64,000 bases of DNA, taken from contig JAZFYD010000249.1 of NCBI GenBank assembly GCA_036443405.1, forward strand, positions 1,553 through 65,552, read 5' to 3'. Below the pieces are notes generated by a model. It saw nothing but the letters and a program-made list of their open reading frames with translations, was not told where the DNA came from and did not search any database. Of this stretch, positions 2,536 through 57,398 are shown in pieces. Position 1 is the stretch's first letter; each line of letters begins with the position of its first letter. Source of the DNA: Planctomycetota bacterium. Lineage in GTDB: Bacteria; Planctomycetota; PLA2. A program made the position numbers and the translations under genes.

Positions 2536-2609
2536 TAGGGCCGGCAGGACTCGAACCTGCAACCAACGAATTATGAGTTCGCTGCTCTAACCGATTGAGC
2601 TACGGCCCC
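2536..2609 (-). tRNA. tRNA-Met (anticodon CAT); could alternatively be lysidine-modified tRNA-Ile2
   Basis: Minus-strand read GGGGCCG-TA-GCTC-AATCGGTTA-GAGC-A-GCGAA-CTCATAA-TTCGT-TGGTT-GCAGG-TTCGAGT-CCTGC-CGGCCCT-A folds as a 74-nt cloverleaf with a GTTCGAGTC T-loop. Anticodon loop is CTCATAA. Position 1-72 is paired (G-U), so it is not an initiator. No CCA is encoded. Confidence 0.9.
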
Positions 2610-2992
2610 GAAGCGGCGACAGTCTACCGCTTGTGTTTGGTGTCGAGGGAGTTAGGGCGTCTACGGCGACCGCCTGCGCGAAGAACCAGCGGTGACTCTC
2701 CGGGTCCTCCGCGCGCACCCTTAGTTCGCCCAGACGCCGCCGAGGATCGTGCCCACGATGGACAAAAGCAGCGCGAACAGCACCACGCCGTACGTCATCC
2801 TGGCGATGTCGCGGTAAAGCGCCTTGTCGCCGCTGCGCCACCCGAGCGCGCGCGAGGACCAAGTGTCGTGCCCTCATGCGCGCCCATTCCATCGGAAAAC
2901 ATGCGTATTCGCCGGGATTATTGCGGAGCCGGCGAGCGCCGTTCGGTAATCTGAGCCGCGGCCTGATGCAACACAAGCCAGGAGAGTGACGT

Positions 2993-3505
2993 ATGCGAAG
3001 TTTCCTGTTGGGTTTCGTTTTGTTCGGGGTGTTGCTCCTCATCGCCCTGTCCGTCCAAGGCGGTCCGGCGGAGGAGGGAGACCCGACCGCGGGCGCCACC
3101 TACACCGGCGCCAGGAGCTGCACGAAGTGCCACTTGAAACAGTCGCGCAGTTGGAAAAAGACGAAGCACTCCAAGGCGTGGGTGGGGCTTCCCGAGAAGT
3201 ACCACGATCCCGCGCAGAAGGACGACAAGGGGCGGGCTTGCATCTCCTGCCACACGACCGGCTACGGCGACGATCGCGGGGGCTTCCAAGACGCCAAAGC
3301 TTCCAAGCACCTCCTCGGAGTTGGCTGCGAGTCCTGCCATGGACCGGGGAGCAAGCACATCGAGGCGGGCAAGAAGCTCGTGGCGGAAAAGCGCAAGAAG
3401 TTCAACGAGGGCGAGCCGAGCTACACGATCCTGCACCCGAAGACCTGCTCGACGTGCCACAACCCGCACATCAGCTACAAGGCGAAATACGGGGAAGAGA
3501 AGTAG
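2993..3505 (+). CDS. Periplasmic tetraheme c-type cytochrome (c554/NrfB-like small multiheme)
   Basis: AGGAG Shine-Dalgarno 6-7 nt upstream of ATG 2993. N-terminal signal peptide. Four CXXCH motifs (CTKCH, CISCH, CESCH, CSTCH) in 170 aa. Confidence 0.85.
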   Translation: MRSFLLGFVLFGVLLLIALSVQGGPAEEGDPTAGATYTGARSCTKCHLKQSRSWKKTKHSKAWVGLPEKYHDPAQKDDKGRACISCHTTGYGDDRGGFQDAKASKHLLGVGCESCHGPGSKHIEAGKKLVAEKRKKFNEGEPSYTILHPKTCSTCHNPHISYKAKYGEEK

Positions 3506-3508
3506 CTC

Positions 3509-5509
3509 GTGCCCGCTGCCGGGTGGTATCGGAGCCTTGTCGTCGTACTTCTTGTGTGCGCTGCAGCGCTGGGCAACGACGCCTGTCTGCGGTGCCACGC
3601 CGACGCGGCGGAACTCGCCAAGCATCAGACGAAGAAAGGCCGTCCGGTCGAACCGCTGCTCGTGGACGGCGCGAAGTTCGCGCGTTCCGTGCATGCGAGC
3701 ATCGACTGCGCGGACTGTCACGACGGCTACGACCGACATCCGCACCTGCGTGAGGCGGAGACCGTCGGCTGCGCGGAGTGCCATGAGGAGGCCGCCGACG
3801 TCTTCGCGAATTCCGTTCACGGCAAGGCCGGGAACGGCCGGGGCGACCTGCCGGTCAAATGCAGCTCCTGCCATGGCGCGCACGATGTCATGAAACCCGG
3901 CGACCGGGAGTCGCGGCTGCACCCGCTCAATGCAATCCGAACGTGCAGCCGCTGTCACGGGGACGCGAAAGACCAGATCTCGGACCGTGAACTTCTGGCC
4001 CTCCCTTACACGGACGACATTCACGCGCGCGGAATCGTGAAGCGCGGACTCGCCGTCAGCGCGAGCTGCGTTTCCTGCCACGGAGGCCACGCGATCCGCG
4101 CCCAGGGCGACCCGGATTCGCAGGTCTCCCGGCTCAACGTCCAGAACACCTGCGGCAAATGCCACGTCGGCATCCAGGAGCGGTACGCGGGCAGCGTGCA
4201 CTTCGACAAACTGCAGGAGGAAGGGCACACGGGGCCCTCCTGTAGCGACTGCCATCCGCCCCACGGCCTCAGGCGGGCGCGAAAGAACTTCAGCGTCGCC
4301 CCGGTGGCAACGTGCGGTCGGTGCCATGCGGAGCGATTGGGCACGTTCGAGCAGACCTACCACGGCAAGGTCTCCACGCTCGGCTTCGGCGAGAAGGTCG
4401 CAAACTGCGCCAGCTGCCACGGGACCCACGAAATCCGTGCGGCCGCGGATCCGAGTTCACGCGTTCACCCCGGCAACCTCGTGCAGACCTGCGGCGAGTG
4501 CCACGAGAACGCCCACTCCAGTTTCGTGCAGTATGACGTGCACGCGGACCCGACGGACGCGGAGAACTATCCAGCGTTGCACCTGATCGAGTCCGCCATG
4601 GTCTGGCTCCTGATCGGGACCTTCGGCTTCTTCGGCATCCACACACTGCTCTGGTTCGTGCGCTCCCTCGCCGCAGGCGAGCGGCCCTTGCGTAACACCA
4701 AGATCGGCTACGTACGCCGCTGGTCCAAGCTGTACGTGACGCTGCACGCGTTTTTCATGTCGGCGTTCCTACTGCTTGCGCTTACGGGACTGCCACTCCA
4801 CTTCTCCGACCGCGCGTGGGCAACGAGCATCATGGAGTTTTTCGGCGGGATCGTCGTGGCCGGCACGATCCACCGGCTCGCGGCGTTCACTCTGTTCGTC
4901 TGCTCGATCGTCTACCTGATCTACATCGTCAAGCTGATCCTGGCCAGCGGGTTGAAGGAGCTCCTGACCGGGCCGAGCACGATGCTGCCCCGCTGGAAGG
5001 ACTTCCAGGACTTCTTCCAGAACCTGGGTTGGTTCCTGTTCTTGCGCCCCAAACCGCGTTTCGACAGGTGGACCTACTGGGAGAAGTTCCACTTCTGGGC
5101 AATCGTGTGGGGGATGATGGTCATCGGCGCCTCCGGCATTCTGCTCTGGTTCCCGGAGACCATGACGCGGATCGTGCCCGGCTGGATGCTCAATTTCGCG
5201 GTCGTCGTCCACGGCCACGAGGCGCTCATCGCGGTCGGGTTCAGCTTTACGGTCCACATGTATCAGTCGAACCTGCGCCCCGAGCGCTTCCCGCTCGAAA
5301 CCTACGTCTTCACGGGGAGCATCACGGAAGAGACTTTCAAGGCGGAGCGACCGCTCGAATACGAGAGGCTGGTCAGCTCCGGAGCGTACGAAGAGCGGAA
5401 GGAAGAGCCGCCGGATCGCCGCACGATCTGGCGGGCTCGGCTCCTGGGGGCTCTGGTGATGATCGTGGGCATCGCGCTCACGCTCCTCATTCTGTTCATT
5501 AGGGAGTAG
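3509..5509 (+). CDS. Fusion of an 11-heme c-type cytochrome domain to a multi-TM b-type cytochrome-like membrane domain (CbcL-like quinol oxidoreductase candidate)
   Basis: GTG start 3 nt after the upstream stop. Signal/anchor helix. 11 CXXCH motifs (CLRCH, CADCH, CAECH, CSSCH, CSRCH, CVSCH, CGKCH, CSDCH, CGRCH, CASCH, CGECH). C-terminal ~300 aa has 5-6 hydrophobic helices carrying His (IHTLLW, TLHAFF, TIHRLAAF, FHFWAIVWG, VVHGHEAL, TVHMY), as in FdnI/HydC-type diheme cytochromes b. Confidence 0.75.
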   Translation: MPAAGWYRSLVVVLLVCAAALGNDACLRCHADAAELAKHQTKKGRPVEPLLVDGAKFARSVHASIDCADCHDGYDRHPHLREAETVGCAECHEEAADVFANSVHGKAGNGRGDLPVKCSSCHGAHDVMKPGDRESRLHPLNAIRTCSRCHGDAKDQISDRELLALPYTDDIHARGIVKRGLAVSASCVSCHGGHAIRAQGDPDSQVSRLNVQNTCGKCHVGIQERYAGSVHFDKLQEEGHTGPSCSDCHPPHGLRRARKNFSVAPVATCGRCHAERLGTFEQTYHGKVSTLGFGEKVANCASCHGTHEIRAAADPSSRVHPGNLVQTCGECHENAHSSFVQYDVHADPTDAENYPALHLIESAMVWLLIGTFGFFGIHTLLWFVRSLAAGERPLRNTKIGYVRRWSKLYVTLHAFFMSAFLLLALTGLPLHFSDRAWATSIMEFFGGIVVAGTIHRLAAFTLFVCSIVYLIYIVKLILASGLKELLTGPSTMLPRWKDFQDFFQNLGWFLFLRPKPRFDRWTYWEKFHFWAIVWGMMVIGASGILLWFPETMTRIVPGWMLNFAVVVHGHEALIAVGFSFTVHMYQSNLRPERFPLETYVFTGSITEETFKAERPLEYERLVSSGAYEERKEEPPDRRTIWRARLLGALVMIVGIALTLLILFIRE

Positions 5510-5511
5510 GA

Positions 5512-6993
5512 ATGGCGCGCGTGCTGGCGTTCGTTCTCCTCGCTCTAGGCGGAAGTTGTTCTACGGCGTGGGCCCAGGACGACGCCCCGCAGGAGGAACC
5601 CGTGGACACCGAGACGCCGGCGACGGACGCCGCCGAGGTGGACACCGTCGAGGGCGTCTCCACCGAGGAAGAGCTGGCAGCGATGGAAACCGGGCGGGAG
5701 AAGGCACTCGAGTGGGAAGTCGAGGGCTACCTCAACAATCGCTGGCGGTACCAAAACGCGGACGGGGAGAACAAATTCATCTGGTTCTTGGATCTAGCAG
5801 CCGACTTCGTCCACAAGGGCGGCGACCTCCCTGGTCGCGTCCGTGTGAACGGGCGGCTCGTCGCGCAATCGGGATCCGACGTTGGCGATCTTCTGTACAA
5901 CACGTGGGACACGTTCAGCGGCGCGGTGAACGGCCGCCTTTACGAGCTGTACGTGCAAACCGAGTCCAAGGGCAACGTGAACGGGAGGCTCGGACGCATG
6001 TTCTACGAGGAAGGCACCTGGATGCACTTCGACGGCGGACGCCTTGACCTCGATCTGAAGGATACGTCGCCCGGACTGCAGGCCTACCTCGTCGGCGGCG
6101 TACCCGTCCGGTTTGGGGACAACAACAACCGCAACGGGAACTGGCTCGTCGGCGGCGTCTTCAAGGGCCAGATCGAGACCCCGCGGACGCGCTGGCGGCT
6201 CGAATATCTGCACATCTCCGAGGAGTTCGAGGGCATCAACGACCCCGTCGTCGATCCCGTCTCGCAGCCGGTCTCGCTGCCGGCGGAGCAGTTCGACGAC
6301 GACTGGATGGGAGCGACTATCTGGCACCGGACCGAAGACAAGCGGCTGAGCCTGTTCGGACGGCTCTCGACGCTCAACTGGCAGTTGAACGAACTCCACC
6401 TGCGCGGTCGCTGGCGCACCGACGACGGCAAGTGGACCGTGCTAGGGGAGTGGTATCAGATGTTCGAACGGCTCATTGACGTCGTGAACGACCTCACGCC
6501 GTATGTGCCGATGCTCGGCTCCTACGAGCCCTTCGGACGCCTCACCGGCCGCGTCACCTACCGTGATCCGAAGTGGATCGCCCAAGCGGGCCTCTCCTAC
6601 CGGACGCTGCTCGACGACGGCATCGAGAGCCTCTTCAACCACGAGTACGTCAACTACTACTTCACCTTCACGCGCCTCGATCTGGAGCAAGGCAAGCTCG
6701 ACGCGACGTTCACGGCGACCGGCTACAGCACCGATCAGAACGAGACCCACGCCGTCGGCGGCAGCCTGGACTACCGGCTGCAAGTGGACTTGACGCTCAG
6801 CACGGGACTGGACTACTCCCTCTGGAAGTACGACTATTTCCGCGACACGGAGCACGAGGACGTCTGGTCCTTCTGGTTCCGTACACAGTGGAAGTTCAAG
6901 CAGAACACGACCGTGGAGGGCTTCGTTGAGATCGACGACGATCGGTTCGCGACCTATACTACTCTCGGCTTGCGGGTGACTTTGAGGTTCTGA
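5512..6993 (+). CDS. Predicted outer-membrane beta-barrel protein (porin component of the cytochrome operon)
   Basis: GGGAG Shine-Dalgarno upstream. Signal peptide MARVLAFVLLALGGSCSTAWA. Acidic D/E/T-rich linker. Alternating aromatic/hydrophilic pattern throughout. Ends ...TLGLRVTLRF with a terminal Phe, typical of OM barrels. Flanked by multiheme cytochrome genes. Confidence 0.6.
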   Translation: MARVLAFVLLALGGSCSTAWAQDDAPQEEPVDTETPATDAAEVDTVEGVSTEEELAAMETGREKALEWEVEGYLNNRWRYQNADGENKFIWFLDLAADFVHKGGDLPGRVRVNGRLVAQSGSDVGDLLYNTWDTFSGAVNGRLYELYVQTESKGNVNGRLGRMFYEEGTWMHFDGGRLDLDLKDTSPGLQAYLVGGVPVRFGDNNNRNGNWLVGGVFKGQIETPRTRWRLEYLHISEEFEGINDPVVDPVSQPVSLPAEQFDDDWMGATIWHRTEDKRLSLFGRLSTLNWQLNELHLRGRWRTDDGKWTVLGEWYQMFERLIDVVNDLTPYVPMLGSYEPFGRLTGRVTYRDPKWIAQAGLSYRTLLDDGIESLFNHEYVNYYFTFTRLDLEQGKLDATFTATGYSTDQNETHAVGGSLDYRLQVDLTLSTGLDYSLWKYDYFRDTEHEDVWSFWFRTQWKFKQNTTVEGFVEIDDDRFATYTTLGLRVTLRF

Positions 6994-8144
6994 TGGAGCG
7001 GCTCCGCGTACTCCTCGCTCTTCTACTCGCGGTCGCCGCGTGCAACCGCCAGGCGAACCGCCCCGCGGCGGAGCCCGAGCCTCCGCGGCCGACGGTGAAT
7101 CACGCACTGCATCTCTCCCGGGACCTGGTCTGCGCCGACTGCCACGACCCCGACGAGACCGGCACGCCGGTCATACCCGCGGCGGAGACCTGCTTCGAGT
7201 GCCATGAGGAGGATCTGACGGCCGAGAGCGAGGCCGTCCGCGCCTACTTCGACGCGGCGAAACAAGGCGACGGCGGCTACCGCTTCACGCGGCCGGCCTA
7301 CTGGTACGACATCGTCGTGAACCACAAGTCCCACGGGAAGTCCGACGTCTCGTGCGCCGACTGCCACGGCGAACCGCTCGAGACGGCGTTCCCCCGCCCC
7401 GCGCCGCTGCCGCTGATGAACACCTGCATGGGCTGCCATACGCAGCGCGGCGCGAGCAACGCGTGCGCAACTTGCCATACCGAGACGAACCAGTCCAAGC
7501 GCCCGCCGAGCCACGACCGCGCGTTCAAGAACAACCACGGACATGCCGCGCCGCGGCTCTGGCGCAACGGCCGCGGAGAGAGCTGTGCGATCTGTCACGA
7601 GGTTCCGCAGAACTGCAACTCCTGCCACAAGGCGGTGCAGCCGAAGTCGCACCGGACCCGCGCCTTCAAGAACACCCACGGTACGGACCTCGACTCGTGG
7701 GATTCGCCCTGGGACCAGGTCTCCTGCTCGTTGTGCCACGAGCGGCAGAGCTGCGTGCGCTGCCACCAGGTCGCGAAGCCGAAGTCGCACACGCGGCCCT
7801 TCGAGCGGCGGTTGCACGGCATCGCGGCGGAGATCGAGCGCGCGAGCTGCATGGTCTGCCACAAGCAGGACTCCTGCGTGCGCTGCCACCAGCAGCAAGA
7901 GCCGATCAGCCATCGCGGCCAGTGGGGCACCGGCCAGCAGTCGCACTGCATGGCGTGTCACGAGCCGCTGACCGCCACGGGTTGCTTTACCTGTCACAAG
8001 CAGACCCTCGGCCATCTTCAGGCGACGCCGCTGCCCGCAGACCAGGTTCACAACACGTCCACGGATCCGAGCGGTTGCGAGCAATGTCATCTCGTCGTGC
8101 CCCATTTTGACAGCGGCGGACGGTGCCGGAGCTGCCACCGATGA
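6993..8144 (+). CDS. 15-heme c-type cytochrome with a lipoprotein-like signal
   Basis: ATG overlaps the upstream TGA by 1 nt. Signal LLALLLAVAAC. 15 CXXCH motifs in 383 aa. Repeated unit CxxCH-x3-4-CxxCH-x5-P-x-SH-x3-F-x-N-x-HG, resembling cytochrome c3/c7-type multiheme arrays. Confidence 0.85.
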   Translation: MERLRVLLALLLAVAACNRQANRPAAEPEPPRPTVNHALHLSRDLVCADCHDPDETGTPVIPAAETCFECHEEDLTAESEAVRAYFDAAKQGDGGYRFTRPAYWYDIVVNHKSHGKSDVSCADCHGEPLETAFPRPAPLPLMNTCMGCHTQRGASNACATCHTETNQSKRPPSHDRAFKNNHGHAAPRLWRNGRGESCAICHEVPQNCNSCHKAVQPKSHRTRAFKNTHGTDLDSWDSPWDQVSCSLCHERQSCVRCHQVAKPKSHTRPFERRLHGIAAEIERASCMVCHKQDSCVRCHQQQEPISHRGQWGTGQQSHCMACHEPLTATGCFTCHKQTLGHLQATPLPADQVHNTSTDPSGCEQCHLVVPHFDSGGRCRSCHR

Positions 8145-9658
8145 GAAACCGGCTGTTGTGCATCTGGCTAGGCGTCGCTCTGTGGGGCGCCGCCTGCTCG
8201 CATGACAATCCGGCGTTCCCGATCCTGCTCGACCCTACGCCCTTCGAGGCCCAGACCGAGGGCCGGATCGAGACCGACGCGTTCCGCGACACCGTGGATA
8301 CGGGCAGCGCGACCCAGTTCGAGTGGACCGCGTCGGGCGCTGTCGGATTCGGCTGGACCCTCCAAACGCCCGACGGCTCCACGGCGGCGCTCGACAATCC
8401 GTTCGCGGCGCAGCCGATGTTCGTTCCCGATGTCGACGGACGGTATCTGGTTTCCGCGGACATCACGTTCAGCGACGGCAGCTCGGCATCGGAGACCCGG
8501 CGGATCACCGCAGGCACTTCCATCTCAGCCGCAGCCTGCACACCGTGCCACGTCGCGCGCGCCAACGATGTTGCGAACTCCGGCCACGCGAACTGCGAAC
8601 GCTGCCATGGCCCGGGAAGCGAGCACAACAGCGACCCGCGCAACATCGCCAACTCGTTGCGGGCGGGCGTCTGCCAGGGTTGCCACCCCGGCTCGGCTAC
8701 CCAGTGGAGGAACTCGCCCCACTCCGCCGAACCGTTCTCGTTCGTGCTGGCCCGCGAGGATTGCCAGAGGTGCCACACGGGCCGCGGATTCATCCGCGAG
8801 ACGCGCGGCCAGGCGTTCGAGGCAGATCCGCCCGGCGCGGTCGGCGCGACCTGCGGCGCCTGCCACGAGCCTCACAGCAACCGGAACGAGCCCCGCCTAC
8901 GCATCTTCGGCAACGTGCAACTCACGTCCCGAGGCGAATTCAACTTCGGGCGCGCCGCCGCTTGCGGCACGTGCCATCAGAGCACGGTCGCCGACCCGCT
9001 AGCGCACACGGCCACGAGCCACCGGTTCACGTTCGCGGTCCACGCCAACATGATCGCCACGCGCGGAGCCGTCGAGTACGGCATGAGCTTCTCCAGCTCG
9101 TTCCACGCAACGACGGTCATGCGGCTGCGCTCCTTCACGGGGGATCCGAACGATTCCGACACCCCGGATTCCTGCGTGATCTGCCACATGGCGCCGTCGG
9201 GCGCCTCCACGCGGCCGGACGAGATGGGCGAGCATGCGCTCGTGTTGCGGATCAACGCCGAGGAACTGGCCATCGGCAACTGCGACCGCTGCCACGCCGG
9301 GCTGAGCACCTTCGACCGGAACATCGGCAAGGACTATGACGGGGACGGCGTGGCGCGCGGCGTTCAGACCGAGGTGCGCAGCCTGATCGAGATCCTGTTC
9401 CAGGCGCTGCGGGCCGCGGACGTGAACAACGCGCTGGACCGGCCCGGCGGCGCGAATACGGAGGTCGACATCGATCCCGACCTCTCGCTGACGACGCCCG
9501 AACTGCGGCAGGCGGTCTGGAATTACAACTTCAACGTCAACGACGGGTCCGCGGGGATTCACAACACGAAGTACGCCGTACAGCTGCTCCAGCGCACCTA
9601 CTCACAGATCACCGGACGCGAGTTCGCGAACGACTTCCCGCTCGCGGATATTGAATGA
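8141..9658 (+). CDS. Octaheme c-type cytochrome with a lipoprotein-like signal and an N-terminal PKD/Ig-like domain
   Basis: ATG 8141 forms an ATGA overlap with the upstream stop (track start 8123 is also possible). Signal LGVALWGAACS. Eight CXXCH motifs (CTPCH, CERCH, CQGCH, CQRCH, CGACH, CGTCH, CVICH, CDRCH). DYDGDG motif. C-terminal helix motif WNYNFNVNDGSAGIHNTKY. Confidence 0.8.
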   Translation: MRNRLLCIWLGVALWGAACSHDNPAFPILLDPTPFEAQTEGRIETDAFRDTVDTGSATQFEWTASGAVGFGWTLQTPDGSTAALDNPFAAQPMFVPDVDGRYLVSADITFSDGSSASETRRITAGTSISAAACTPCHVARANDVANSGHANCERCHGPGSEHNSDPRNIANSLRAGVCQGCHPGSATQWRNSPHSAEPFSFVLAREDCQRCHTGRGFIRETRGQAFEADPPGAVGATCGACHEPHSNRNEPRLRIFGNVQLTSRGEFNFGRAAACGTCHQSTVADPLAHTATSHRFTFAVHANMIATRGAVEYGMSFSSSFHATTVMRLRSFTGDPNDSDTPDSCVICHMAPSGASTRPDEMGEHALVLRINAEELAIGNCDRCHAGLSTFDRNIGKDYDGDGVARGVQTEVRSLIEILFQALRAADVNNALDRPGGANTEVDIDPDLSLTTPELRQAVWNYNFNVNDGSAGIHNTKYAVQLLQRTYSQITGREFANDFPLADIE

Positions 9659-9671
9659 ACGGAGGGTGACC

Positions 9672-12077
9672 ATGCGGCTTTCACTCATGCTCGCAGGCCT
9701 CGCGTTGTTTCTCCCGGGCTGCAACGACGACAACGTTGGGGTTCCGGTGGTCGTAGTTTCCGGCCAGTCCGCCGTCACGCTCGGGCGGACCGAGCAGCTA
9801 ACCGCGACGACGAGGAACGCCAGCGACACCGGATATCTCTGGTCGACCTCGGACCCCGTAGTCGCGGGCATCGACCAGTCCGGCGTAGTCACCGGGCGTG
9901 CCACCGGCCAGGCCATGATCACCGCCACGGGGAACCGTACGAGCGCTCTCGGTAGCCTGCTCGTGACCGTGAGCGCCGTTCCCGGCACCGGCGCGCCCTT
10001 CGAGGACGAGTGGGGCAACTCCCCGCACAACGACATCACGTCCGAGGCCTTCGCGCGCTGGACGGGCCCGATCTCGACCTCCTGCGCGAAGTGCCATTCG
10101 ACCCACGGGTTCCGAGACTTCCTCGGAGACGACGGTTCCACGCCGGGACAGGTGGACCAAGCCGCCGCGATCGGGTCCACCGTGGAGTGCGCCGCCTGCC
10201 ACAATGCGGCCTCGGCCGGATGGGACACGATGGCGTTTCCGAGCGGCGCCGTGATTCCGAACAATTTCGCGCCGGACGCACTCGGGCGCGAGGCAACTTG
10301 CATGGAGTGCCACCAGGGCCGGGCCTCGACGGTAACCGTGGACGACGCGATCGCCGGCGCTGCGCCCGCCGACGACGACACCGTCATGCCCGGAGTAGGT
10401 GCGATCGACGTGCACTATCTGCCCGGCGCGGCCACGTTCTACGCCGGGCTCGCCCGCGGCGCGTACGTCTACGCAGGTGAACGGTACGACATCCTGTGGC
10501 GTCACGTTCCCGGCTACGACAACTGCCAGGGCTGTCACGAGCCGCACGGGACCAACATCCGATTGAACGACTGCGCGCAATGCCACAACGTCTCGACCAT
10601 GCAAGACCTCCGCGACATCCGGATGGAGTCGTCGAAGACCCGGGACTACGACGGCGACGGCAACCTCATCGAGGGCGTGTACTTCGAAGTCGAAGGGGTG
10701 AAGGCGCTGCTCCTCGCCGCGATCCAGGAGTACGCCCGCGAGGTCGTCGGCCAGGCGATCGCATACGACGGCCGCTGGCGCAACGACGATAACGACAACG
10801 GCATCGTCGACACGGGCGAGACGACTTCGTTCTCGATGTTCACGCCGCGCCTGCTGAAGGCGACCTACAACTACAACTACGCCGAGCGCGACGGCGGCGC
10901 GTACGCCCACAACGCCAAGTTCATGATCCAGTGTCTGCGCGACGGGATCGACGACCTGAACATGGCGATCACGAACAAGATTGATGTCTCCGCCGCGGAC
11001 CGGAACGACCGCGGCCACTTCGACTCCACGGAGGAGGCGTTCCGGCACTGGGACAGCTCGGGTACGGTGCCGGCGTCGTGCGCAAAGTGCCACAGCGCCT
11101 CGAGAGGTCTTGAGCAGTTCCTCGAAACCGGCGGAACCGGCGACCAGCCGGCTTCAAACGGGTTCGAATGCGCCGTCTGCCACACGACGTTCAACACGTT
11201 CGAGACGCGGCGTATCCTCCAGGTCACGTTCCCCGGAGGCAAGATGACGCCGATGCTCGATCCGGGGACGCCGACAGACGACCCCGAGATGCAGGCCAAC
11301 ACCTGCATCCAGTGCCACCAGGGCCGCACGTCGAAAAAGGACATCGACGACGCGATCGATGCCTTCATCGACGATCCTGCGGCCAACCCGCTCGGCTTCC
11401 TGAACATCCACAACCTCGCCGCCGCGGCGACGCTGTTCGGCACGGACGCGATGGTCGGCTACGAGTACGACGGGAACACGTATCGGGCGAAGTTCGGACA
11501 CTTCAGTGCCGAGTCGTCGGCCTGCGTTTTCTGCCACAGCCCGCTGAACACCCAGCACACCTTCTTGCCGAACGACAACCTCAACACGTGCAACGGCTGT
11601 CACCAGGATCTGGACGGATCGCCACTGACGGACGTGAAGAACATCCGGCGCAACCGGAACGACGACTACAACGGCAACGGCCTCTTCCCCGGCTCGGGCG
11701 CCGGCAACGAGATCCTCAACGACGAGTTGCAACCGATCGCCGCGGCGCTACTCCTCGCGATCCAGGACTACGCGGAGAACACGGGTACCGGATCGGAGGG
11801 CCAGACGCGCGCCCAGGATCCCATCGTCCATTGCCCGGACACCTTCCCGTACTACTTCAAGGACACGAACAACAACGGAACATGCGACGCGGGCGAGAAC
11901 AACTTCGGGAACCGTTACACGGACTGGGACGGTGACCTGCTGAGGGCCACCCATAACTACCAGCACAGCCAGAAGGAACCCGGGGCCTGGGCTCACAACT
12001 TCTTCTACATCCTGCAGCTGGTCATCGACTCCATCGACGACCTCGGAGGCGACACGGACGATTACACGCGCCCCTAG
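9672..12077 (+). CDS. Decaheme c-type cytochrome with a lipoprotein-like signal, an N-terminal Big_2-like Ig domain and two tandem pentaheme modules
   Basis: GGAGG Shine-Dalgarno 6 nt upstream of ATG 9672 (the track starts at TTG 9651). Signal LAGLALFLPGC. Big_2-like segment GQSAVTLGRTEQLTATT...VVAGIDQSGVVTGRATGQAMITATG. 10 CXXCH motifs arranged 5+5, each set followed by an NYN(Y/Q)...G(A/W)..AHN helix motif. Confidence 0.85.
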   Translation: MRLSLMLAGLALFLPGCNDDNVGVPVVVVSGQSAVTLGRTEQLTATTRNASDTGYLWSTSDPVVAGIDQSGVVTGRATGQAMITATGNRTSALGSLLVTVSAVPGTGAPFEDEWGNSPHNDITSEAFARWTGPISTSCAKCHSTHGFRDFLGDDGSTPGQVDQAAAIGSTVECAACHNAASAGWDTMAFPSGAVIPNNFAPDALGREATCMECHQGRASTVTVDDAIAGAAPADDDTVMPGVGAIDVHYLPGAATFYAGLARGAYVYAGERYDILWRHVPGYDNCQGCHEPHGTNIRLNDCAQCHNVSTMQDLRDIRMESSKTRDYDGDGNLIEGVYFEVEGVKALLLAAIQEYAREVVGQAIAYDGRWRNDDNDNGIVDTGETTSFSMFTPRLLKATYNYNYAERDGGAYAHNAKFMIQCLRDGIDDLNMAITNKIDVSAADRNDRGHFDSTEEAFRHWDSSGTVPASCAKCHSASRGLEQFLETGGTGDQPASNGFECAVCHTTFNTFETRRILQVTFPGGKMTPMLDPGTPTDDPEMQANTCIQCHQGRTSKKDIDDAIDAFIDDPAANPLGFLNIHNLAAAATLFGTDAMVGYEYDGNTYRAKFGHFSAESSACVFCHSPLNTQHTFLPNDNLNTCNGCHQDLDGSPLTDVKNIRRNRNDDYNGNGLFPGSGAGNEILNDELQPIAAALLLAIQDYAENTGTGSEGQTRAQDPIVHCPDTFPYYFKDTNNNGTCDAGENNFGNRYTDWDGDLLRATHNYQHSQKEPGAWAHNFFYILQLVIDSIDDLGGDTDDYTRP

Positions 12078-12261
12078 AGGGCCACCCTGTACCTGCGCGG
12101 CGAGAAGCGCCGCACGAGGAGGCCTCGGTCGACAGGTCGGGCCCCGTTGTGGCTCGTTCTCCCGCGCGGTCCGGCTCCACTGCGGCCATTCTTCCCACGG
12201 TTCGCCTTTGCGCACGGCCGCGCGCGATAGTAAAACGGCCCTCCACAAAAGGAGTGCCGAC

Positions 12262-13803
12262 ATGAGCGGATTCGTACGGACGTGCGTTTGTTGCGTGGCT
12301 ATTCTCGTTGCCTTTTCCGGGGTTGCCTCGGCGCAGGACAAAAAGCCGAACATCCTCGTCATCTGGGGCGATGACATCGGCCAGGGCAACATCAGCGCCT
12401 ACACGAAGGGCGTGATGGGCTATCGCACGCCCAACATCGATCGTGTCGCCAAGGAGGGCATGATCTTTACCGACTACTACGCCGAGCAGAGCTGCACGGC
12501 GGGACGCTCCTCCTTCATCATGGGGCAGAGCGTCTTTCGCACGGGCCTCAGCAAGGTCGGCCTCCCAGGCGCGGACCTGGGCATGCAGAAAGAAGACCCC
12601 ACGATCCCAGGATTGCTCAAGGCGCACGGCTACGCGTCGGGGCAGTTCGGCAAGAACCACCTGGGCGACAAGGACGCGCACCTGCCGACGAACCACGGCT
12701 TCGACGAGTTCCTCGGCAACCTCTATCACTTAAACGCCGAGGAGGAGCCGGAGAACGAGGACTACCCGAAGGGCGAGGATTTCCGCAAGCGGTTCGGACC
12801 GAGGGGCGTGATCAAGTCCTTCGCCGGCGGGACGATCGAGGACACCGGCCCGTTGACCAAGAAGCGCATGGAGACGATCGACGAAGAGACGATCTCCGCG
12901 GCGATCGACTTCATCAAGCGGCAGCACAAGGCGGGCAAGCCGTTTTTCTGCTGGTGGAACGGCACGCGCATGCACTTCCGGACCCACGTCAAGAAGTCGC
13001 TACGCGGCATCTCCGGCCAGGACGAGTACTCCGACGGCATGGTCGAGCACGACATGCACGTCGGCCAGCTCCTCAAGGTGCTGGACGACCTCGGCATCGC
13101 CGACAACACGATCGTTTTCTACAGCACCGACAACGGTCCCCACCAGAACACGTGGCCGGACGCGGGCACGACACCCTTCCGCAGCGAGAAGAACACCAAC
13201 TGGGAGGGCGCCTACCGGGTGCCGGCGATGGTTCGCTGGCCGGGCAAGATCAAGGCGGGCTCGGTCTCCAACGAGATCATGCACCACATGGACTGGCTGC
13301 CCACGTTCGTGGCTGCTGCGGGCGACGCCGATGTCAAGGCCAAGTTGCTCAAGGGCCACAAGGCCATGGGTCGCGACTACAAGGTCCATCTTGACGGCTA
13401 CAACTTCCTGCCGCATCTGACCGGCGCGGCCAAGAAGGGCCCGCGCAAGGAGTTCTTCTACTTCACCGACGACGGCGATCTGGCATGCCTGCGCTACGAG
13501 GACTGGAAGGTGGTCTTCTTGGAGCAGCGCGCCACGGGAACGCTGTTGCTGTGGGCCAATCCCTTCACGGTCCTGCGCGTCCCCAAGATCTTCAATCTGC
13601 GTCGCGACCCGTACGAGCGGGCGGACCGGACTTCGAACCTGTACTACGAGTGGCTTATCGATCGCGTTTACCTGCTCACGCCGGCCCAGGTCATCGTGGG
13701 AGAGTTCCTTGAGACGTTCAAGGAGTACCCGCCGCGCCAGAAGGCCGCGAGCTTCGCGTTCGAGCGGGTCATGGAAAAACTCACCGAGGGCCGTGGTGGC
13801 TAA
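12262..13803 (+). CDS. Arylsulfatase (formylglycine-dependent sulfatase family), secreted
   Basis: AAGGAG Shine-Dalgarno upstream of ATG 12262. Signal peptide. KKPNILVIWGDDIG followed by the sulfatase signature SCTAGRSSFIMG (C-x-A-x-R). Confidence 0.85.
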   Translation: MSGFVRTCVCCVAILVAFSGVASAQDKKPNILVIWGDDIGQGNISAYTKGVMGYRTPNIDRVAKEGMIFTDYYAEQSCTAGRSSFIMGQSVFRTGLSKVGLPGADLGMQKEDPTIPGLLKAHGYASGQFGKNHLGDKDAHLPTNHGFDEFLGNLYHLNAEEEPENEDYPKGEDFRKRFGPRGVIKSFAGGTIEDTGPLTKKRMETIDEETISAAIDFIKRQHKAGKPFFCWWNGTRMHFRTHVKKSLRGISGQDEYSDGMVEHDMHVGQLLKVLDDLGIADNTIVFYSTDNGPHQNTWPDAGTTPFRSEKNTNWEGAYRVPAMVRWPGKIKAGSVSNEIMHHMDWLPTFVAAAGDADVKAKLLKGHKAMGRDYKVHLDGYNFLPHLTGAAKKGPRKEFFYFTDDGDLACLRYEDWKVVFLEQRATGTLLLWANPFTVLRVPKIFNLRRDPYERADRTSNLYYEWLIDRVYLLTPAQVIVGEFLETFKEYPPRQKAASFAFERVMEKLTEGRGG

Positions 13804-17010: not shown

Positions 17011-18675
17011 ATGCTCGAAACTCTCGACGGGTTCATACGTGGCAGTCCTGCCGCCTTGCTTTTCGCCGTGCTGGGTCTGGGAAGCCTGGTCGGCAGGGCA
17101 AACGTCCGTGGCATCGAGTTGGGCACGGTTTCGGGAGTGCTGTTCGTCGGCCTCGCCTTCGGTCATTTCGGGTACGAGTTCTCGTCGGCGGCACAAACGA
17201 TCGGATTCGTGCTGTTCATCTTTTCGGTGGGCCTGCAGGCCGGCCCGAGCTTCTTCAGCGTGTTGCGCCAGGATGGCCTCAGATACCTCGCGCTGGCCCT
17301 GGTCGTCGGGAGCACCGGCTTTCTTCTGGCATTGGGATTCGCGAAGGCTCTCGGACTCGCACCGGGCGCGGCCGCCGGCCTCCTCGCGGGTGGGCTGACC
17401 AGCTCGCCGACGCTGGCAGCGGCCCAAGACGCGGTGCGCGGCGGCAAGGTGCCCATCCCCGAGGGCTATGACGCCGATCAGCTGCTGACGAACATCTCGA
17501 CCGGGTACGCGATCACGTACATCTTCGGTCTCATCGGCCTCATCCTGATCATTCGCTTCCTGCCGCGCATCCTGGGCATCGATTTGGCCGCCGAGGCCGC
17601 AAAGCTCGAGGCCGGTCGCAAGGGCGGCGTCGAGGATCGCGTCTTCGGGCTCGCGGACATTCGGGCGCGGGCTTATCGCGTCACGGTCGACGAATACATC
17701 GGCAAGACGATCCGAGAGATGCACGCGCTGTTTCCGGGCAAGGGAACGATCGAGAAGCTCCGTCGCCGAGGCGAGATGATCGAACCGAGCCTCGAAACGA
17801 TGCTCGAGCGGGACGATGAGGTCTGTGTCGTCGGGCGCTTGGACGCGCTCATGTCCGCGCCGGTCGGCCCCGAGATCGCCGACCACGAGCTTCTCGACGT
17901 GCACATCGAGTCCTGCCGCGTCGTTGCGCTCCGATCCAAGGTCAAGGAGCTGACGTTCACGCCCGAGCAGGGGGTCCGGGAGTACGGTTGCTTCCTGTCG
18001 CGCATACAGCGACTGGGTGTCGACGTTCCGTTCGGAGAGACGATCTCCTTTCAGGCCGGTGACGTGCTGCACGTCACCGGGCCCGCTGCGCGTCTCAAAG
18101 CGCTGGGCGATACGATCGGCCACGTCGAGGGCGCCGCGGAACAGACCGACCTGACGACGTTCGCGATCGGGATTGCCTTGGGCTTGTTTGTCGGCACGCT
18201 CTCCGTGACGATCGGCGGCCTCTCCATCGGCCTCGGCTCGGCTGGCGGCCTGCTCACCGCGGGCCTGCTTATCGGATACCTGCGGGCGCTGCACCCGAGG
18301 TTCGGGCGCGTGCCCGGCGCGGCGCGGTGGATTTTCATGGAGCTTGGGCTCTTGATCTTCATGGCGGGCGTCGGGCTGCGCGCCGGTTCGGGGATCCTGG
18401 AGACGCTGGCCGAGACCGGGCCGAAGATGTTCCTGGCCGGCCTGGTCGTGACGGCGGTACCCGTCCTGGTGGGATATCTCTTCGGCTCGAAGTTCCTGAG
18501 GATCAACCCTGTGCTGTTGCTCGGCGCCATCACGGGCTCCATGACCAGCGGCGCTTCCTTGAGCATCGTCACGCGTGAAGCCAACAGTTCGATCCCCGCG
18601 CTCGGTTACACCGGCGCGTACGCGTTCGCGAACATCTTCTTGACGATCGCCGGTGGCGTAATCCTGCTGTTGTGA
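17011..18675 (+). CDS. YidE/YbjL-type transporter (AAE aspartate:alanine exchanger family) with a central TrkA-C/RCK_C pair
   Basis: N-terminus LLFAVLGLGSLVGRANVRGIELGTVSGVLFVGLAFG, with a duplicated membrane half (GLSIGLGSAGGLLTAGLLIG) separated by a soluble region of about 200 aa. Confidence 0.75.
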   Translation: MLETLDGFIRGSPAALLFAVLGLGSLVGRANVRGIELGTVSGVLFVGLAFGHFGYEFSSAAQTIGFVLFIFSVGLQAGPSFFSVLRQDGLRYLALALVVGSTGFLLALGFAKALGLAPGAAAGLLAGGLTSSPTLAAAQDAVRGGKVPIPEGYDADQLLTNISTGYAITYIFGLIGLILIIRFLPRILGIDLAAEAAKLEAGRKGGVEDRVFGLADIRARAYRVTVDEYIGKTIREMHALFPGKGTIEKLRRRGEMIEPSLETMLERDDEVCVVGRLDALMSAPVGPEIADHELLDVHIESCRVVALRSKVKELTFTPEQGVREYGCFLSRIQRLGVDVPFGETISFQAGDVLHVTGPAARLKALGDTIGHVEGAAEQTDLTTFAIGIALGLFVGTLSVTIGGLSIGLGSAGGLLTAGLLIGYLRALHPRFGRVPGAARWIFMELGLLIFMAGVGLRAGSGILETLAETGPKMFLAGLVVTAVPVLVGYLFGSKFLRINPVLLLGAITGSMTSGASLSIVTREANSSIPALGYTGAYAFANIFLTIAGGVILLL

Positions 18676-18751
18676 CTTTGTGGCGTCCGCTCGGGCTTTT
18701 CGACCTTGCGGGCGCTCTCCATTTCACCAATACTGCGCCCCAGATTCACGC

Positions 18752-19870
18752 GTGACCGAGCAGATCTCTTTTGCCCGGCCGGACAACGCAACGCTCGAGG
18801 TTCGGCTTGAGGGAAGCTGGCGCATGCGCGACGGCCTTCCCGATGCCGTCATCGTTACGGAGCAGATCGAGTCCGGGGCAACCCGACGACTGACGTTCGA
18901 CACCGGGAGCATCGCGGCCTGGGACAGTGCGCTCGTGTCCTTCCTGCTCAAAGTGCTCGTCGAGTGCGGCCGGCGCGACATTGAGGCGGACCAGAGTGGC
19001 TTCCCCGATGGCGTGCGGCGTCTCATCACGCTCGCCACCGCCGTTCCCGAGGCGGAGACACGCCCGGGGGAGGGCCACGGATCCCTGATTGCGCGTCTCG
19101 GCGTCAGGGTCATTCGTCTCGCCGCCGACGCCAAGGCGATGGTCACCTTCACGGGTGAGGTTGGGATCGCGATGGTCAGGCTGGCTCGGGGCAAGGCGCG
19201 TTTCCGGCGCTCCGATTTCACGCTGACGATCCAGGAGTGCGGCGCCCAGGCGCTGGGGATCGTCTCGTTGATCGGTTTCCTCATCGGCCTGATCCTGGGC
19301 TTCATCGGCGCGACGCAGCTCCAGAAGTTCGGCGCCGAGATCTACGTCGCCAACCTCGTCGGCATCGGCATGGCGCGCGAGATGGCAGCGGTGATGACGG
19401 CCATCATCATGGCGGGACGCACCGGCGCCGCGTTCGCCGCCCAGCTCGGGACGATGACCGTGAACGAGGAGATCGATGCGCTCAAATCGCTGGCGATTTC
19501 GCCCATGGAGTTCCTCGTCCTGCCGCGCATGATGGCGTTGGCCCTCATGATGCCGCTGCTCTGTCTCTACGCCATCGTCCTCGGGGCCCTGGGGGGTGCG
19601 CTCGTGGCGAGCATGCTCGGCATCAGTCTCACGATCTACTTCCAGCAGCTCATCGACTCGGTCACGGTCACCGACGTGGCGGTCGGTGTCGTCAAGGCCT
19701 CCGTTTTCGGCGTCATCGTCGCGTTCGCCGGTTGCCTACGCGGCATGCAGTGCGGCCGAAGCGCCGCCTCGGTTGGAGCCGCGACGACGTCGGCGGTTGT
19801 GACCAGCATCGTCCTGGTCATCTGCTCGGACGCGGCGATCAACGTGATCTTGACGGTGTTGGGTATCTAG
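18752..19870 (+). CDS. mlaE: MlaE-family ABC permease with an N-terminal STAS-like domain
   Basis: Permease core GIVSLIGFLIGLILGFIGATQLQKFGAEIYVANLVGIGMAREMAAVMTAIIMAGRTGAAFAAQLGTMTVNEEIDAL. N-terminal ~110 aa is STAS-like (TLEVRLEGSW...LTFDTGSIAAWDSALVSFLL). Start is GTG 18752 or GTG 18680. Confidence 0.8.
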   Translation: MTEQISFARPDNATLEVRLEGSWRMRDGLPDAVIVTEQIESGATRRLTFDTGSIAAWDSALVSFLLKVLVECGRRDIEADQSGFPDGVRRLITLATAVPEAETRPGEGHGSLIARLGVRVIRLAADAKAMVTFTGEVGIAMVRLARGKARFRRSDFTLTIQECGAQALGIVSLIGFLIGLILGFIGATQLQKFGAEIYVANLVGIGMAREMAAVMTAIIMAGRTGAAFAAQLGTMTVNEEIDALKSLAISPMEFLVLPRMMALALMMPLLCLYAIVLGALGGALVASMLGISLTIYFQQLIDSVTVTDVAVGVVKASVFGVIVAFAGCLRGMQCGRSAASVGAATTSAVVTSIVLVICSDAAINVILTVLGI

Positions 19871-19872
19871 CC

Positions 19873-20628
19873 ATGAGGGAGCCGGAAGCACAGGTGACGG
19901 TGAAGGACCTGACGATGGCCTACGGCGACTTCGTCATCCAGCACGACCTGACGTTCGAGATCGCGCGCGGCGAAGTGTTCATCATCATGGGTGGGAGCGG
20001 CTGCGGGAAGAGCACGCTGATGCGCCATCTCGTCGGCCTAAAGGCGCCGGCGAAGGGACAGATCTTCTATGGCGACGAGAGCTTCTGGGAGGCGCCGGAG
20101 CCCGACCGTCTGCGCATGATGCAGCACTTCGGCGTCATGTACCAGAGCGGCGCGCTGTGGAGCTCCATGACGCTGGCGGAGAACGTGATGCTCCCTCTGG
20201 GGGAGTACACGGACCTGAAGCCCAAGGAGATGCGCGAGATTGCGTCGCTGAAGCTGGCTTTGGTCGGGTTGGCCGGGTTCGAGGATTTCTACCCGTCCGA
20301 GATCAGCGGGGGGATGCAGAAACGCGTGGGCGTCGCGCGCGCCATGGCGCTCGACCCGGAGATCCTCTATTTCGACGAGCCGTCGGCGGGCCTCGATCCG
20401 ATCAGCTCGCGCCGCCTGGACGACCTCATCCTGGAGCTTCGTGACAGCCTCGGCACGACGATGGTCGTCGTCACGCACGAGTTGGCGAGCATCTTCGGCA
20501 TCGCCGACAACTCGGTCTACTTGGATGTGGAGACGCGGACGATGATCGCGCAGGGGGATCCGAAGACGCTCCGCGACGAGAGCGACATTCCCATGGTCCG
20601 CACGTTTCTGACGCGCGGGGAGGAGTGA
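19873..20628 (+). CDS. mlaF: ABC transporter ATP-binding protein (MlaF-like)
   Basis: Walker A GGSGCGKST, signature SGGMQKRV, Walker B ILYFDEP. ATG lies 2 nt after the permease stop. Confidence 0.85.
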   Translation: MREPEAQVTVKDLTMAYGDFVIQHDLTFEIARGEVFIIMGGSGCGKSTLMRHLVGLKAPAKGQIFYGDESFWEAPEPDRLRMMQHFGVMYQSGALWSSMTLAENVMLPLGEYTDLKPKEMREIASLKLALVGLAGFEDFYPSEISGGMQKRVGVARAMALDPEILYFDEPSAGLDPISSRRLDDLILELRDSLGTTMVVVTHELASIFGIADNSVYLDVETRTMIAQGDPKTLRDESDIPMVRTFLTRGEE

Positions 20629-20631
20629 GAC

Positions 20632-21714: not shown

Positions 21715-22310
21715 TGAAACGACTCACATTGGCGATTCTCTTGGCCGGTCTCGCGGGCTGCGGCAGTTCGAAGGCGTCCAGGTTCTACTACCTGAAACCG
21801 ATTCCGGAGGCAGAGCGGGCGACGCAGTCCCCCGAGGACGCGCCGGTGATCGGCGTCGGTCCGATCACGATTCCCCAACGCTTCGACCGGCCCAACATTC
21901 TGACGACGACGGGCACGCACGAGCTCCGGCTGGCAGAGTTTCACCGCTGGGCGGAGCCGATGGAGGAGAACCTCGCGAACGTGCTCGGCGAGAATCTCGC
22001 CGCGCTCATCGGGACCGATTGGATCTACTACCACCCGTGGAGATCGACGACCCACATCGATTACCAAGTCAGCGTGCGCTTGCTGCAGGTCAGCGGCACA
22101 CCCGGCGGAACGGTCACGCTGACCGCCCGCTGGACTATCTATGGAAACCAGAAGGTGCTTGTCAACCGGAAGTCCGTCTTCTCAAGGGAGACGGCCGCCC
22201 CCAAGGACAAGGAAGACCATCCCTATGAGGAGCTGATCGCGGAGTTCAACGAACTTGTCAACGACTTGAGCCGAGAGATCGCGGAAGCGATTCGACAACA
22301 AAGGGACTAG
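21714..22310 (+). CDS. ABC-transport auxiliary lipoprotein (PqiC/YmbA-like, DUF330-type)
   Basis: ATG overlaps the upstream TGA by 1 nt. Lipobox LLAGLAGC, then SRFYYLKP, typical of this family. Sits last in the Mla/Pqi-like operon. Confidence 0.65.
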
Positions 22311-25300: not shown

Positions 25301-25381
25301 CGCCGTCGTCACCAACCCGAGGAGGAGGCTGCTGCACATGAGCACGCGCTTGAGCGTCGAAGAGGCGGAGAGATCAGCCAT
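22307..25381 (-). CDS. Hybrid sensor histidine kinase: multi-TM sensor, GAF, HisKA, HATPase_c and two receiver domains
   Basis: Start MADLSASS (ATG 25381) overlaps the upstream stop by 8 nt. About 8 TM helices with repeated M-x-x-NTA-x-x-F motifs. H-box [15 protein letters not shown], then N, G1 and G2 boxes (GTGLGL). Two REC domains ([18 protein letters not shown]). Confidence 0.85.
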
Positions 25382-33557: not shown

Positions 33558-33651
33558 GCCCGCCCTCCTTGGGACGCGACATCCTACTAATTTGGAGACC
33601 GGAGTGCGACAGAGCACCACGGCGCGGCGTACACGAACTGTTGCAGTCCGC

Positions 33652-57396: not shown

Positions 57397-57398
57397 AC

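Follow-up and report, generated by a model that had tools for sequence, protein, structure and literature searches.

A six-gene barrel and multiheme cytochrome operon of Planctomycetota that probably encodes a trans-envelope electron conduit

A six-gene cluster with 48 heme-binding motifs

A cluster of six co-directional plus-strand open reading frames (ORFs), g1 to g6, was examined in a 64,000-nucleotide (nt) stretch of DNA from a Planctomycetota bacterium of the PLA2 lineage (GenBank assembly GCA_036443405.1, contig JAZFYD010000249.1, positions 1,553 to 65,552 of the forward strand). This whole stretch is referred to as the window, and the cluster spans positions 2993-12077 of it. An earlier, sequence-only reading of this DNA had proposed that the six genes form an operon for a complete porin-cytochrome conduit from the inner membrane to the cell surface. 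All six ORFs were found where that reading had placed them, with the same five intergenic spacings of +3, +2, -1, -4 and +13 nt from g1 to g6, and its total of 48 CXXCH heme-binding motifs was reproduced gene by gene, with 4, 11, 0, 15, 8 and 10 motifs in g1 to g6, respectively, including those of its 4-heme (g1) and 15-heme (g4) cytochromes. These 48 motifs occur within 3018 amino acids (aa) of cluster protein, compared to none in the 14,743 aa of the other 30 ORFs called in the window, and hence the clustering of CXXCH motifs in the six genes is far beyond chance. No CX3-4CH or CXXCK motifs were detected in the six proteins by a motif scan.

The start of g4 overlaps the stop of g3 by 1 nt. 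Stop and start nucleotides are shared at both the g3/g4 and g4/g5 junctions, which suggests translational coupling at these two positions. A GGAG Shine-Dalgarno-like motif lies just 5' of the ATG of g1. Downstream of g6 are genes for a sulfatase and a HAD hydrolase, neither of which is related to the cluster, and none of the 30 other window ORFs scanned matched a respiratory family. With a tRNA-Met gene upstream and an unrelated sulfatase gene downstream, the six genes therefore form a discrete unit (Table 1). The adjacent tRNA-Met gene prompted consideration of a mobile island. This explanation was rejected, as the G+C content is uniform at ~65% throughout the window and no integrase or transposase family was present in the flanking ORFs that were scanned.

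Table 1. Features of the cluster and its flanks, in window coordinates
Feature	Position (nt)	Strand	Description
tRNA-Met	2536-2609	-	Sole Rfam match in the window; bounds the operon upstream
Upstream intergenic region	2610-2992	+	Presumed promoter region, between tRNA-Met (minus strand) and g1
g1	2993-3505	+	170-aa tetraheme c554-like cytochrome; 4 CXXCH; PF13435
g2, whole gene	3509-5509	+	666 aa; 11-heme c domain fused to a b-type membrane domain
g2, N-terminal part	3509-4555	+	Signal peptide and 11-heme c-type domain, predicted periplasmic; 11 CXXCH, aa 26-328
g2, C-terminal part	4556-5509	+	Polytopic b-type cytochrome domain, HydC/FdnI-like; PF01292
g3	5512-6993	+	493-aa predicted outer-membrane beta-barrel; structural model, Foldseek, invariant F493
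g4	6993-8144	+	383-aa 15-heme cytochrome with lipobox; 15 CXXCH; VAAC, Cys17
g5	8141-9658 (alternative GTG start 8123)	+	~505-aa 8-heme cytochrome; 8 CXXCH; lipobox GAAC
g6	9672-12077 (alternative TTG start 9651)	+	~801-aa 10-heme cytochrome; 10 CXXCH; lipobox LPGC
g6, Big_2 Ig-like domain	9756-9938	+	29.8 bits (cut-off 22.8)
g6, tandem pentaheme-plus-helical modules	9981-10970 and 10971-12074	+	Internal duplication
Sulfatase gene	12208-13803		Family scan; unrelated to the cluster; bounds the operon downstream

Protein predictions and conserved neighbourhoods

The product of g3 had been predicted to be an outer-membrane beta-barrel, and structural modelling led to the same result. The protein has a signal peptide, whose hydrophobic leader ends AWA/QDD, followed by a disordered acidic N-terminal stretch and then 22 strands between aa 68 and 492 (nt 5713-6987). 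An AlphaFold2 (AF2) model derived from 31 homologues contained these 22 beta-strands and had a predicted local distance difference test (pLDDT) score of 78.9 and a predicted template modelling (pTM) score of 0.73. A Foldseek comparison with the PDB returned outer-membrane barrels for all of the top 50 matches, among them MOMP, OccK/OprD, OmpM1, chitoporin, AlgE and the PapC/FimD ushers; the template modelling (TM) scores were 0.35 to 0.47, modest values of the kind expected where strand numbers differ. The C terminus reads RVTLRF, and the terminal phenylalanine (F493) was invariant in 31 sequences. Neither Pfam nor NCBIfam contained a family matching g3 at E<=0.1.

Searches of 5.8 billion clustered proteins detected 35 close relatives of the barrel (40-62% identity), all of which were unnamed or "hypothetical", and those held by NCBI came from Planctomycetota metagenome-assembled genomes (MAGs). 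A word-indexed profile search with the barrel alignment found nothing beyond these first 35 matches. Exhaustive searching with a hidden Markov model (HMM) of the barrel detected 669 representatives, each of a cluster at 50% identity, at E<=1e-3 and 275 at E<=1e-30, with scores falling sharply beyond the close clade. Members of this wider family with a name that could be looked up were few, and all were hypothetical proteins of Planctomycetota or Candidatus Omnitrophota.

The 15 hemes of g4 are packed at a density of 25.5 aa per heme, a closer packing than the ~33 aa per heme quoted for MtrA (PMC5566968). From residue 198 onward, the motifs are arranged in close pairs, 9 to 16 residues apart, that recur every ~35 to 45 residues. 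The protein has 16 histidines outside the motifs, a number that would allow bis-His ligation of its hemes. The leader ends VAAC; across 64 homologues, conservation of at least 90% was seen for its Cys17 and for the heme motifs. Lipoboxes, of the general form [LVI][ASTVI][GAS]C, were called in g4, g5 and g6 by pattern only, within the first 20 residues. All three of these proteins matched the MtrC/MtrF II/IV domain family PF22113 above its cut-off of 30 bits, with scores of 35.0 for g4, 40.9 for g5 and 32.1 for g6. A further resemblance was detected at the N terminus of g4, where aa 30-152 (nt 7080-7450), carrying the first four heme motifs, resembled the pentaheme subunit ActA of alternative complex III (PDB 6lod, 8k9e and 6f0k; E values of 1e-8 to 2e-6, best 1.2e-8); Foldseek agreed. 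This likeness may have arisen by grafting of a module between inner- and outer-membrane electron chains.

Gene neighbourhoods were compared in eight close loci (L001 to L008, barrel identity of 41-46%) and four distant loci (L009 to L012). A g4 homologue followed the barrel gene in all eight close loci, with 15 CXXCH motifs in seven of them and 17 in the other and with a lipobox-like leader in each. The same adjacency was present in three distant loci (L009, L011 and L012), making 11 of 12 loci overall, and the stop and start codons of the two genes often overlapped. The barrels of these three loci were only 23-24% identical, scoring 119 to 151 bits against the profile, and the distant g4 homologues (28-33% identity) had either 13 hemes in 337 to 341 aa or 11 hemes in 323 aa. 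The barrel and g4 genes thus stay adjacent across a large sequence divergence. Homologues of g1 and g2 were directly upstream of the barrel in L001, L004 and L005, were at other positions of the locus in L002, L003 and L007 and were missing from the surrounding 10 kb in L006 and L008. The g1 homologues, with four hemes, adjoined g2 homologues in L001, L004, L005 and L007 and the barrel in L003. Beside the barrel/cytochrome core of L008 (positions 17183-19726) were genes for an NrfD-like membrane protein, a 4Fe-4S protein and a multiheme cytochrome, and the core of L012 (8623-10870) likewise had genes for NrfD-like membrane and 4Fe-4S proteins beside it. The surface cytochromes of the close loci were either g5/g6-like, including 10-heme g6 homologues in L004, L006 and L008, or paralogues of 1165 to 1180 aa with PKD-type domains. 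All six genes occurred in the order of the window in one of the eight close loci, L004, which is from a MAG named "Planctomycetaceae bacterium PLA2". Conserved synteny of the six genes, to which the sequence-only reading had looked for support, was therefore found for the barrel/15-heme pair and not for the complete order. Overall, these neighbourhoods indicated that the conserved core consists of the barrel and g4 pair only, with an inner-membrane module that is moved or replaced, and they suggested that CbcL-like and NrfCD-like quinol modules may be interchangeable.

Several other features of these loci were recorded. A Rieske/cytochrome b/multiheme cytochrome cluster divergently adjoins the conduit operon in L001 (1675-6806). 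Genes for cytochrome c maturation by System II (ResB and CcsA-like) are directly upstream of the conduit cluster in L005 (2737-5788), and diheme c or cbb3-type cytochrome c genes are near the cluster in L006 and L008. L009 (3791-8972), on a low-GC (49%) contig of an unclassified MAG, has a slimmed version in which 9-heme g5-like and 4-heme c554-like proteins accompany a distant barrel and a lipoprotein with 11 hemes; the barrel family consequently extends beyond high-GC planctomycetes.

The two remaining lipobox cytochromes share a repeated module. The tandem copies within g6 were 32% identical (E = 2e-39), and g5, in which an N-terminal beta-rich region and three hemes precede the module, carries one copy in region 8700-9655 (27% identity, E = 4e-16). 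The shared unit, ~330 aa in length, combines five hemes with an acidic loop resembling DYDGDG and with a helical tail that ends in a conserved N-Y-x-x-S/A-x-K/R-D/E-x-G-A-x-A-H-N. Apart from generic heme models, Pfam had no match for this unit, no relative of solved structure was found for it, and sequence and profile searches of the PDB with g5 and g6 gave nothing informative beyond the Big_2 domain of g6 and a short stretch of g5 matching Thermincola OcwA (PDB 6i5b, E = 4e-4). The description of g6 as a 10-heme, lipoprotein-like cytochrome with a Big_2 domain was borne out in each part. For g5, the eight hemes and the lipoprotein-like leader stood, and the PKD-like domain was not confirmed: Pfam failed to detect PKD even with an isolated N-terminal fragment at E<=10, and PKD matches were present only on the larger paralogues in related loci.

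A further explanation is that g5, g6 or both could be catalytic multiheme enzymes for a soluble substrate, examples being nitrite, hydroxylamine, sulfite, tetrathionate or a chalcogen oxyanion, with the other proteins of the cluster serving as an electron supply. The short OcwA match of g5 is in favour of this explanation. Weak matches to PF02335 (Cytochrom_C552/NrfA) in the 1165- to 1180-aa paralogues of L001, L005 and L006 point in the same direction, as does the likeness of g1 to a tetraheme tail found in a UshA-like selenoprotein family. The window proteins themselves, however, had no match to NrfA (PF02335) or a hydroxylamine oxidoreductase family in Pfam, and the accessory cytochromes NrfB and NrfH were far below their NCBIfam cut-offs. 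Furthermore, the cluster has no CXXCK or other atypical heme motif, the histidines outside the motifs allow bis-His ligation for every heme, and no relative of the g6 module could be detected among enzymes of solved structure. We therefore regard a catalytic role as very improbable, and the proposal of a conduit, for which a match to a known enzyme system had been named as one possible refutation, came through this comparison intact.

The first two genes encode the predicted periplasmic and inner-membrane components. The g1 protein matched Cytochrome_C554 (PF13435) with 66.8 bits and has a single strongly hydrophobic N-terminal segment by hydropathy (aa 3-21), which could be a signal or an anchor; a role as a periplasmic electron shuttle is inferred. 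The N-terminal part of g2 matched Cytochrome_C7, c3_2 and Paired_CXXCH in Pfam, and its 11 motifs were kept in all five of the g2 homologues with 45-50% identity. Its membrane domain matched Ni_hydr_CYTB (PF01292) over aa 404-585 with 33.7 bits (cut-off of 30.1) and TIGR01583, formate dehydrogenase gamma, with an E value of 6.8e-7. A simple hydropathy scan detected five clear helices and one weaker helix, the latter carrying His568 and His583. These two residues together with His413 and His455 were invariant in an alignment of g2 with six homologues (7 sequences), and four such histidines would be enough to ligate two b-hemes. The domain is a candidate quinol/quinone site. The combination of a multiheme c domain with a HydC/FdnI-like b domain of about six helices and conserved histidines is the architecture of the CbcL/MtoC/MtrH family. 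No CbcL model of NCBIfam matched g2. The CbcL-type assignment made earlier was supported by the PF01292 match, the six hydrophobic helices and the four invariant histidines in the membrane.

A predicted trans-envelope electron conduit

Taken together, these results indicated that the six genes probably constitute one translationally coupled operon of Planctomycetota that encodes a self-contained porin-cytochrome conduit for electrons across the cell envelope. From the predicted locations of the proteins, the following path can be proposed. The g2 protein would trade electrons with the pool of quinones by way of its di-heme b membrane domain, and the electrons would then run along its 11 periplasmic c-hemes to be carried across the periplasm by g1. 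The g4 protein, lying within the 22-strand barrel of g3, would act as a wire across the outer membrane, and g5 and g6 would receive the electrons at the cell surface as exposed terminal reductases. The conserved barrel/g4 pair, the heme density of g4, a strand number within the range of the porins of Geobacter-type porin-cytochrome complexes (Pcc) and a gene order like that of ombB-omaB-omcB all argue for a conduit, as do the lipoprotein signals of g5 and g6, the Ig-like domain of g6 and the lack of a catalytic signature. The exchange of a CbcL-like module for an NrfD and 4Fe-4S module in related loci is in keeping with a conduit whose entry points at the inner membrane can be exchanged.

A number of observations weigh against this proposal. 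The evidence for a conduit comes from the order of the genes, their motifs and domains, a predicted barrel fold and conserved gene neighbourhoods. A single transcription unit is suggested by the gene spacing, and scans of the flanking gaps were blank: no sigma-70-like promoter was found in the upstream gap by a consensus scan, the sigma-70 consensus being one that may not suit this phylum, and no terminator was found in the downstream gap. The AF2 model of g4 was poor (pLDDT of 69.6, with values of <50 over most of aa 196-338); its C-terminal two thirds were unusable, and Foldseek matched only ActA, at the N terminus. Insertion of g4 into the g3 barrel is thus a putative arrangement, and the topology of g4 is uncertain because this protein has a lipobox, unlike the soluble MtrA or OmaB. 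Surface exposure of g5 and g6 is likewise putative, as the sorting of lipoproteins in Planctomycetota cannot be predicted from sequence. Lastly, L010 (8001-13795) encodes a 13-heme g4-like lipoprotein without a barrel and beside TPR, Rieske and cytochrome b genes, indicating that relatives of g4 can serve purely periplasmic chains.

The organization of L010 also supports a different explanation, in which the cytochromes belong to a respiratory chain of the periplasm or inner membrane, such as an accessory of a bc-type or alternative-complex-III-like system, and the barrel is an ordinary diffusion or export porin encoded in the same operon. The ActA-like N terminus of g4, the Rieske/cytochrome b genes divergently adjoining the cluster in L001 and the generic porins among the structural matches of the barrel are all consistent with this explanation. 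That barrel and g4 adjoin each other in 11 of 12 loci, even where barrel identity is as low as 23%, would however be hard to explain for an unrelated porin. In addition, the barrel is larger, at 22 strands, than the 16- to 18-strand diffusion porins that it best matched, with TM-scores of only 0.35 to 0.47, and the lipoboxes of g5 and g6 and the Ig-like domain of g6, which is typical of surface proteins, also speak against this explanation. This explanation was judged to be improbable, and a conduit through the barrel was retained as the preferred interpretation.

The most likely use of such a conduit would be outward transfer to acceptors that are insoluble or outside the cell, for instance oxides of Fe(III) or Mn(IV), humic matter or electrodes. 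Inward flow would also be allowed by the same components, in which case g2 would reduce quinone with electrons taken from Fe(II), Mn(II) or reduced humics, from a cathode or from a syntrophic partner. Multiheme conduits are reversible in principle. Homologues of CbcL/MtoC/MtrH occur in Fe(III) reducers and Fe(II) oxidisers without a distinguishing feature (PMC6295460). As these homologues serve both directions, the direction is not decidable from sequence. Genes for Fe/Mn oxidation have been reported in MAGs of non-anammox Planctomycetota (PMC10732223), and the diheme c or cbb3-type cytochrome c genes near the clusters of L006 and L008 would also suit uptake. On the other side, surface cytochromes are usually missing from the known oxidising Mto/Pio clusters (PMC4245776), whereas two large lipoprotein cytochromes with MtrC-type domains are present here; the two surface cytochromes favour outward transfer by this analogy. 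Family scans of the window ORFs also detected no carbon-fixation, cyc2 or oxidase genes. Electron uptake as the function of the conduit therefore appears unlikely, and outward transfer is preferred.

The window also contains several genes separate from the conduit operon. Two adjacent minus-strand paralogues at 46331-49402 and 49866-53147 encode proteins of 1023 and 1093 aa with repeated CarboxypepD_reg/prealbumin-like domains, which are probably cell-surface proteins. A 1260-aa protein (53878-57660, minus strand) has only a C-terminal LOG/"lysine decarboxylase"-SLOG domain (aa ~963-1138), with no Pfam match in its first ~950 residues. A hybrid sensor kinase of 1094 aa with GAF, HisKA/HATPase and two receiver domains is encoded ~10 kb from the operon (22307-25591, minus strand). 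The regions 17011-21714 (plus strand) and 29218-33830 (minus strand) encode ordinary envelope functions, namely an Asp-Al_Ex/TrkA-C transporter, MlaE/MlaD-like proteins and an RND efflux pair (AcrB-type and HlyD-type).

Comparison with known systems

The closest parallel in gene layout is the Geobacter Pcc (OmbB-OmaB-OmcB), in which a porin, a multiheme cytochrome and one or more lipoprotein cytochromes are encoded in this order. The same layout is present in g3 to g6, with a 22-strand porin, an adjacent multiheme cytochrome and lipobox cytochromes thereafter. Porins of the Pcc have 18 to 22 strands and their partner cytochromes, which are periplasmic and soluble, have 5 to 14 hemes (PMC4245776). 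Homologues are present in Anaeromyxobacter, Candidatus Kuenenia and Ignavibacterium (Shi et al. 2014, PMC4245776), with partner cytochromes of 338 to 344 aa and 12 to 14 hemes in Kuenenia and Anaeromyxobacter and of 400 aa and 14 hemes in Ignavibacterium (PMC4245776). In a comparison by description only, g4 (383 aa, 15 hemes) and its 13-heme relatives (337 to 341 aa) were alike to these partners in size and heme density. On the basis of published size and heme number, common ancestry of g3 and g4 with the Pcc pairs is plausible. The present operon differs from the Pcc in that the 15 hemes of g4 are outside the 5-14 range and its lipobox is conserved, in its two predicted surface cytochromes, which are assembled from a duplicated pentaheme module, and in the inclusion of the quinol module and shuttle in the same operon.

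The Shewanella MtrCAB complex (PDB 6R2Q) and MtoAB/PioAB share with this operon the common logic of a heme wire inside a barrel and a decaheme lipoprotein at the surface. MtrC has two pentaheme units, as does g6, and its II/IV domain family is the one matched by g4, g5 and g6. Domains I and III of MtrC, which are beta-barrels, are replaced here by Ig-like Big_2 and helical modules. The sequence-only reading had found no obvious orthologue of MtrA, MtrB or MtrC, and the family models supported this view. For MtrB/PioB, which was rejected as an identity for g3, there was no family match, the barrel profile matched no PDB chain at E<=10 (MtrB of 6R2Q included), MtrB was absent from the Foldseek top 50 and the strand number is 26 to 28 compared to 22 in g3. 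The MtrA/DmsE model (TIGR03508, cut-off of 192.2 bits) gave 29.0 bits with g4, which has 15 rather than ten hemes and ActA as its best PDB match, and gave 56.4 bits with g2 and 51.3 bits with g6; an MtrA/DmsE identity for g4 was thus rejected. An OmcA/MtrC identity for g5 and g6 was also rejected, with g5 scoring 16.4 bits against a cut-off of 209.3 for TIGR03507, g6 not being listed and neither protein having a significant PDB sequence match to MtrC, OmcA or MtrF.

Proteins of the CbcL/MtoC/MtrH family have 3 to 23 c-hemes and mostly six helices with conserved histidines and are distributed over 15 phyla (Zhong & Shi 2018, PMC6295460). Two homologues are from Planctomycetes, and some are clustered with mtrAB or mtoAB (PMC6295460). 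The CbcL protein of G. sulfurreducens, to which g2 is likened by architecture, is the same kind of fusion but has 9 hemes compared to 11, and g2 differs from the family in being clustered with a non-Mtr barrel. The PCC3 and PCC4 clusters of Fe(II) oxidisers encode a ~300-aa inner-membrane protein of five helices with two WX3HX13H motifs, and the cytochromes of PCC3 are much larger, with medians of 21 to 34 hemes, and of low complexity (PMC5566968). Assignment of the operon to PCC3/PCC4 was rejected, as its sole membrane protein is the 666-aa g2 fusion with an HX14H spacing (568/583) and its cytochromes have 8 to 15 hemes and are not of low complexity.

Other divergent clusters have come from genome mining. 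Verrucomicrobia have porin-multiheme cytochrome clusters with a partner cytochrome of 8 hemes (PMC5615132), divergent porin-multiheme-cytochrome clusters termed EET1-4 have been described in Acidobacteriota and Verrucomicrobiota (bioRxiv 10.64898/2026.05.27.727921), and FeGenie made PCC calls in Planctomycetota MAGs, where one cluster lies beside an NrfD-type cluster, as in L008 and L012 (PMC10732223). These clusters and PCC3/PCC4 likewise come from uncultured lineages and pair an uncurated porin with neighbouring multiheme cytochromes, and an extracellular electron-transfer conduit was predicted for them by the same reasoning. The novelty claimed for the six genes by the sequence-only reading was overstated. 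Association of CbcL/MtoC with porin-cytochrome genes has been published (PMC6295460), as have divergent clusters (PMC4245776, PMC5615132, PMC5566968). This kind of system is well established, and there are precedents for all-in-one clusters that include a CbcL/MtoC-type gene. A description of the barrel and 15-heme lipoprotein family was not found in the literature searched. The new elements here are the barrel family, which is uncurated, its 15-heme partner with a predicted lipid anchor, the surface cytochromes' duplicated pentaheme-plus-helical module and the occurrence in non-anammox Planctomycetota.

A more tentative proposal, possible rather than probable, is that the barrel and lipoprotein-cytochrome pair represents a porin-cytochrome lineage of its own, separate from both Mtr and the Geobacter Pcc. 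This lineage would have its centre in Planctomycetota and Omnitrophota, would so far be unannotated and would have a lipid-anchored wire and an interchangeable CbcL-like or NrfCD-like entry. Non-anammox Planctomycetota are usually viewed as aerobic or fermentative degraders of polysaccharides. If this proposal is true, they would gain a complete and portable six-gene route for the respiration of minerals or humic matter. A MAG study of 2023 termed its own FeGenie results the first report of Fe/Mn cycling potential in non-anammox Planctomycetota (PMC10732223). That potential would become concrete and open to testing through a conserved barrel and 15-heme pair, and likewise through a quinone-pool module, a periplasmic shuttle and surface cytochromes encoded together within a single operon of 9 kb. 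The operon would also be a compact candidate for heterologous "plug-in" electroactivity, and the barrel profile could serve as a marker for a family of 669 representative clusters that is not recognised by Pfam, NCBIfam or PDB sequences. Compared to the systems already described, the operon would leave the concept of extracellular electron transfer unchanged and would add one more independent-looking solution to a growing list.

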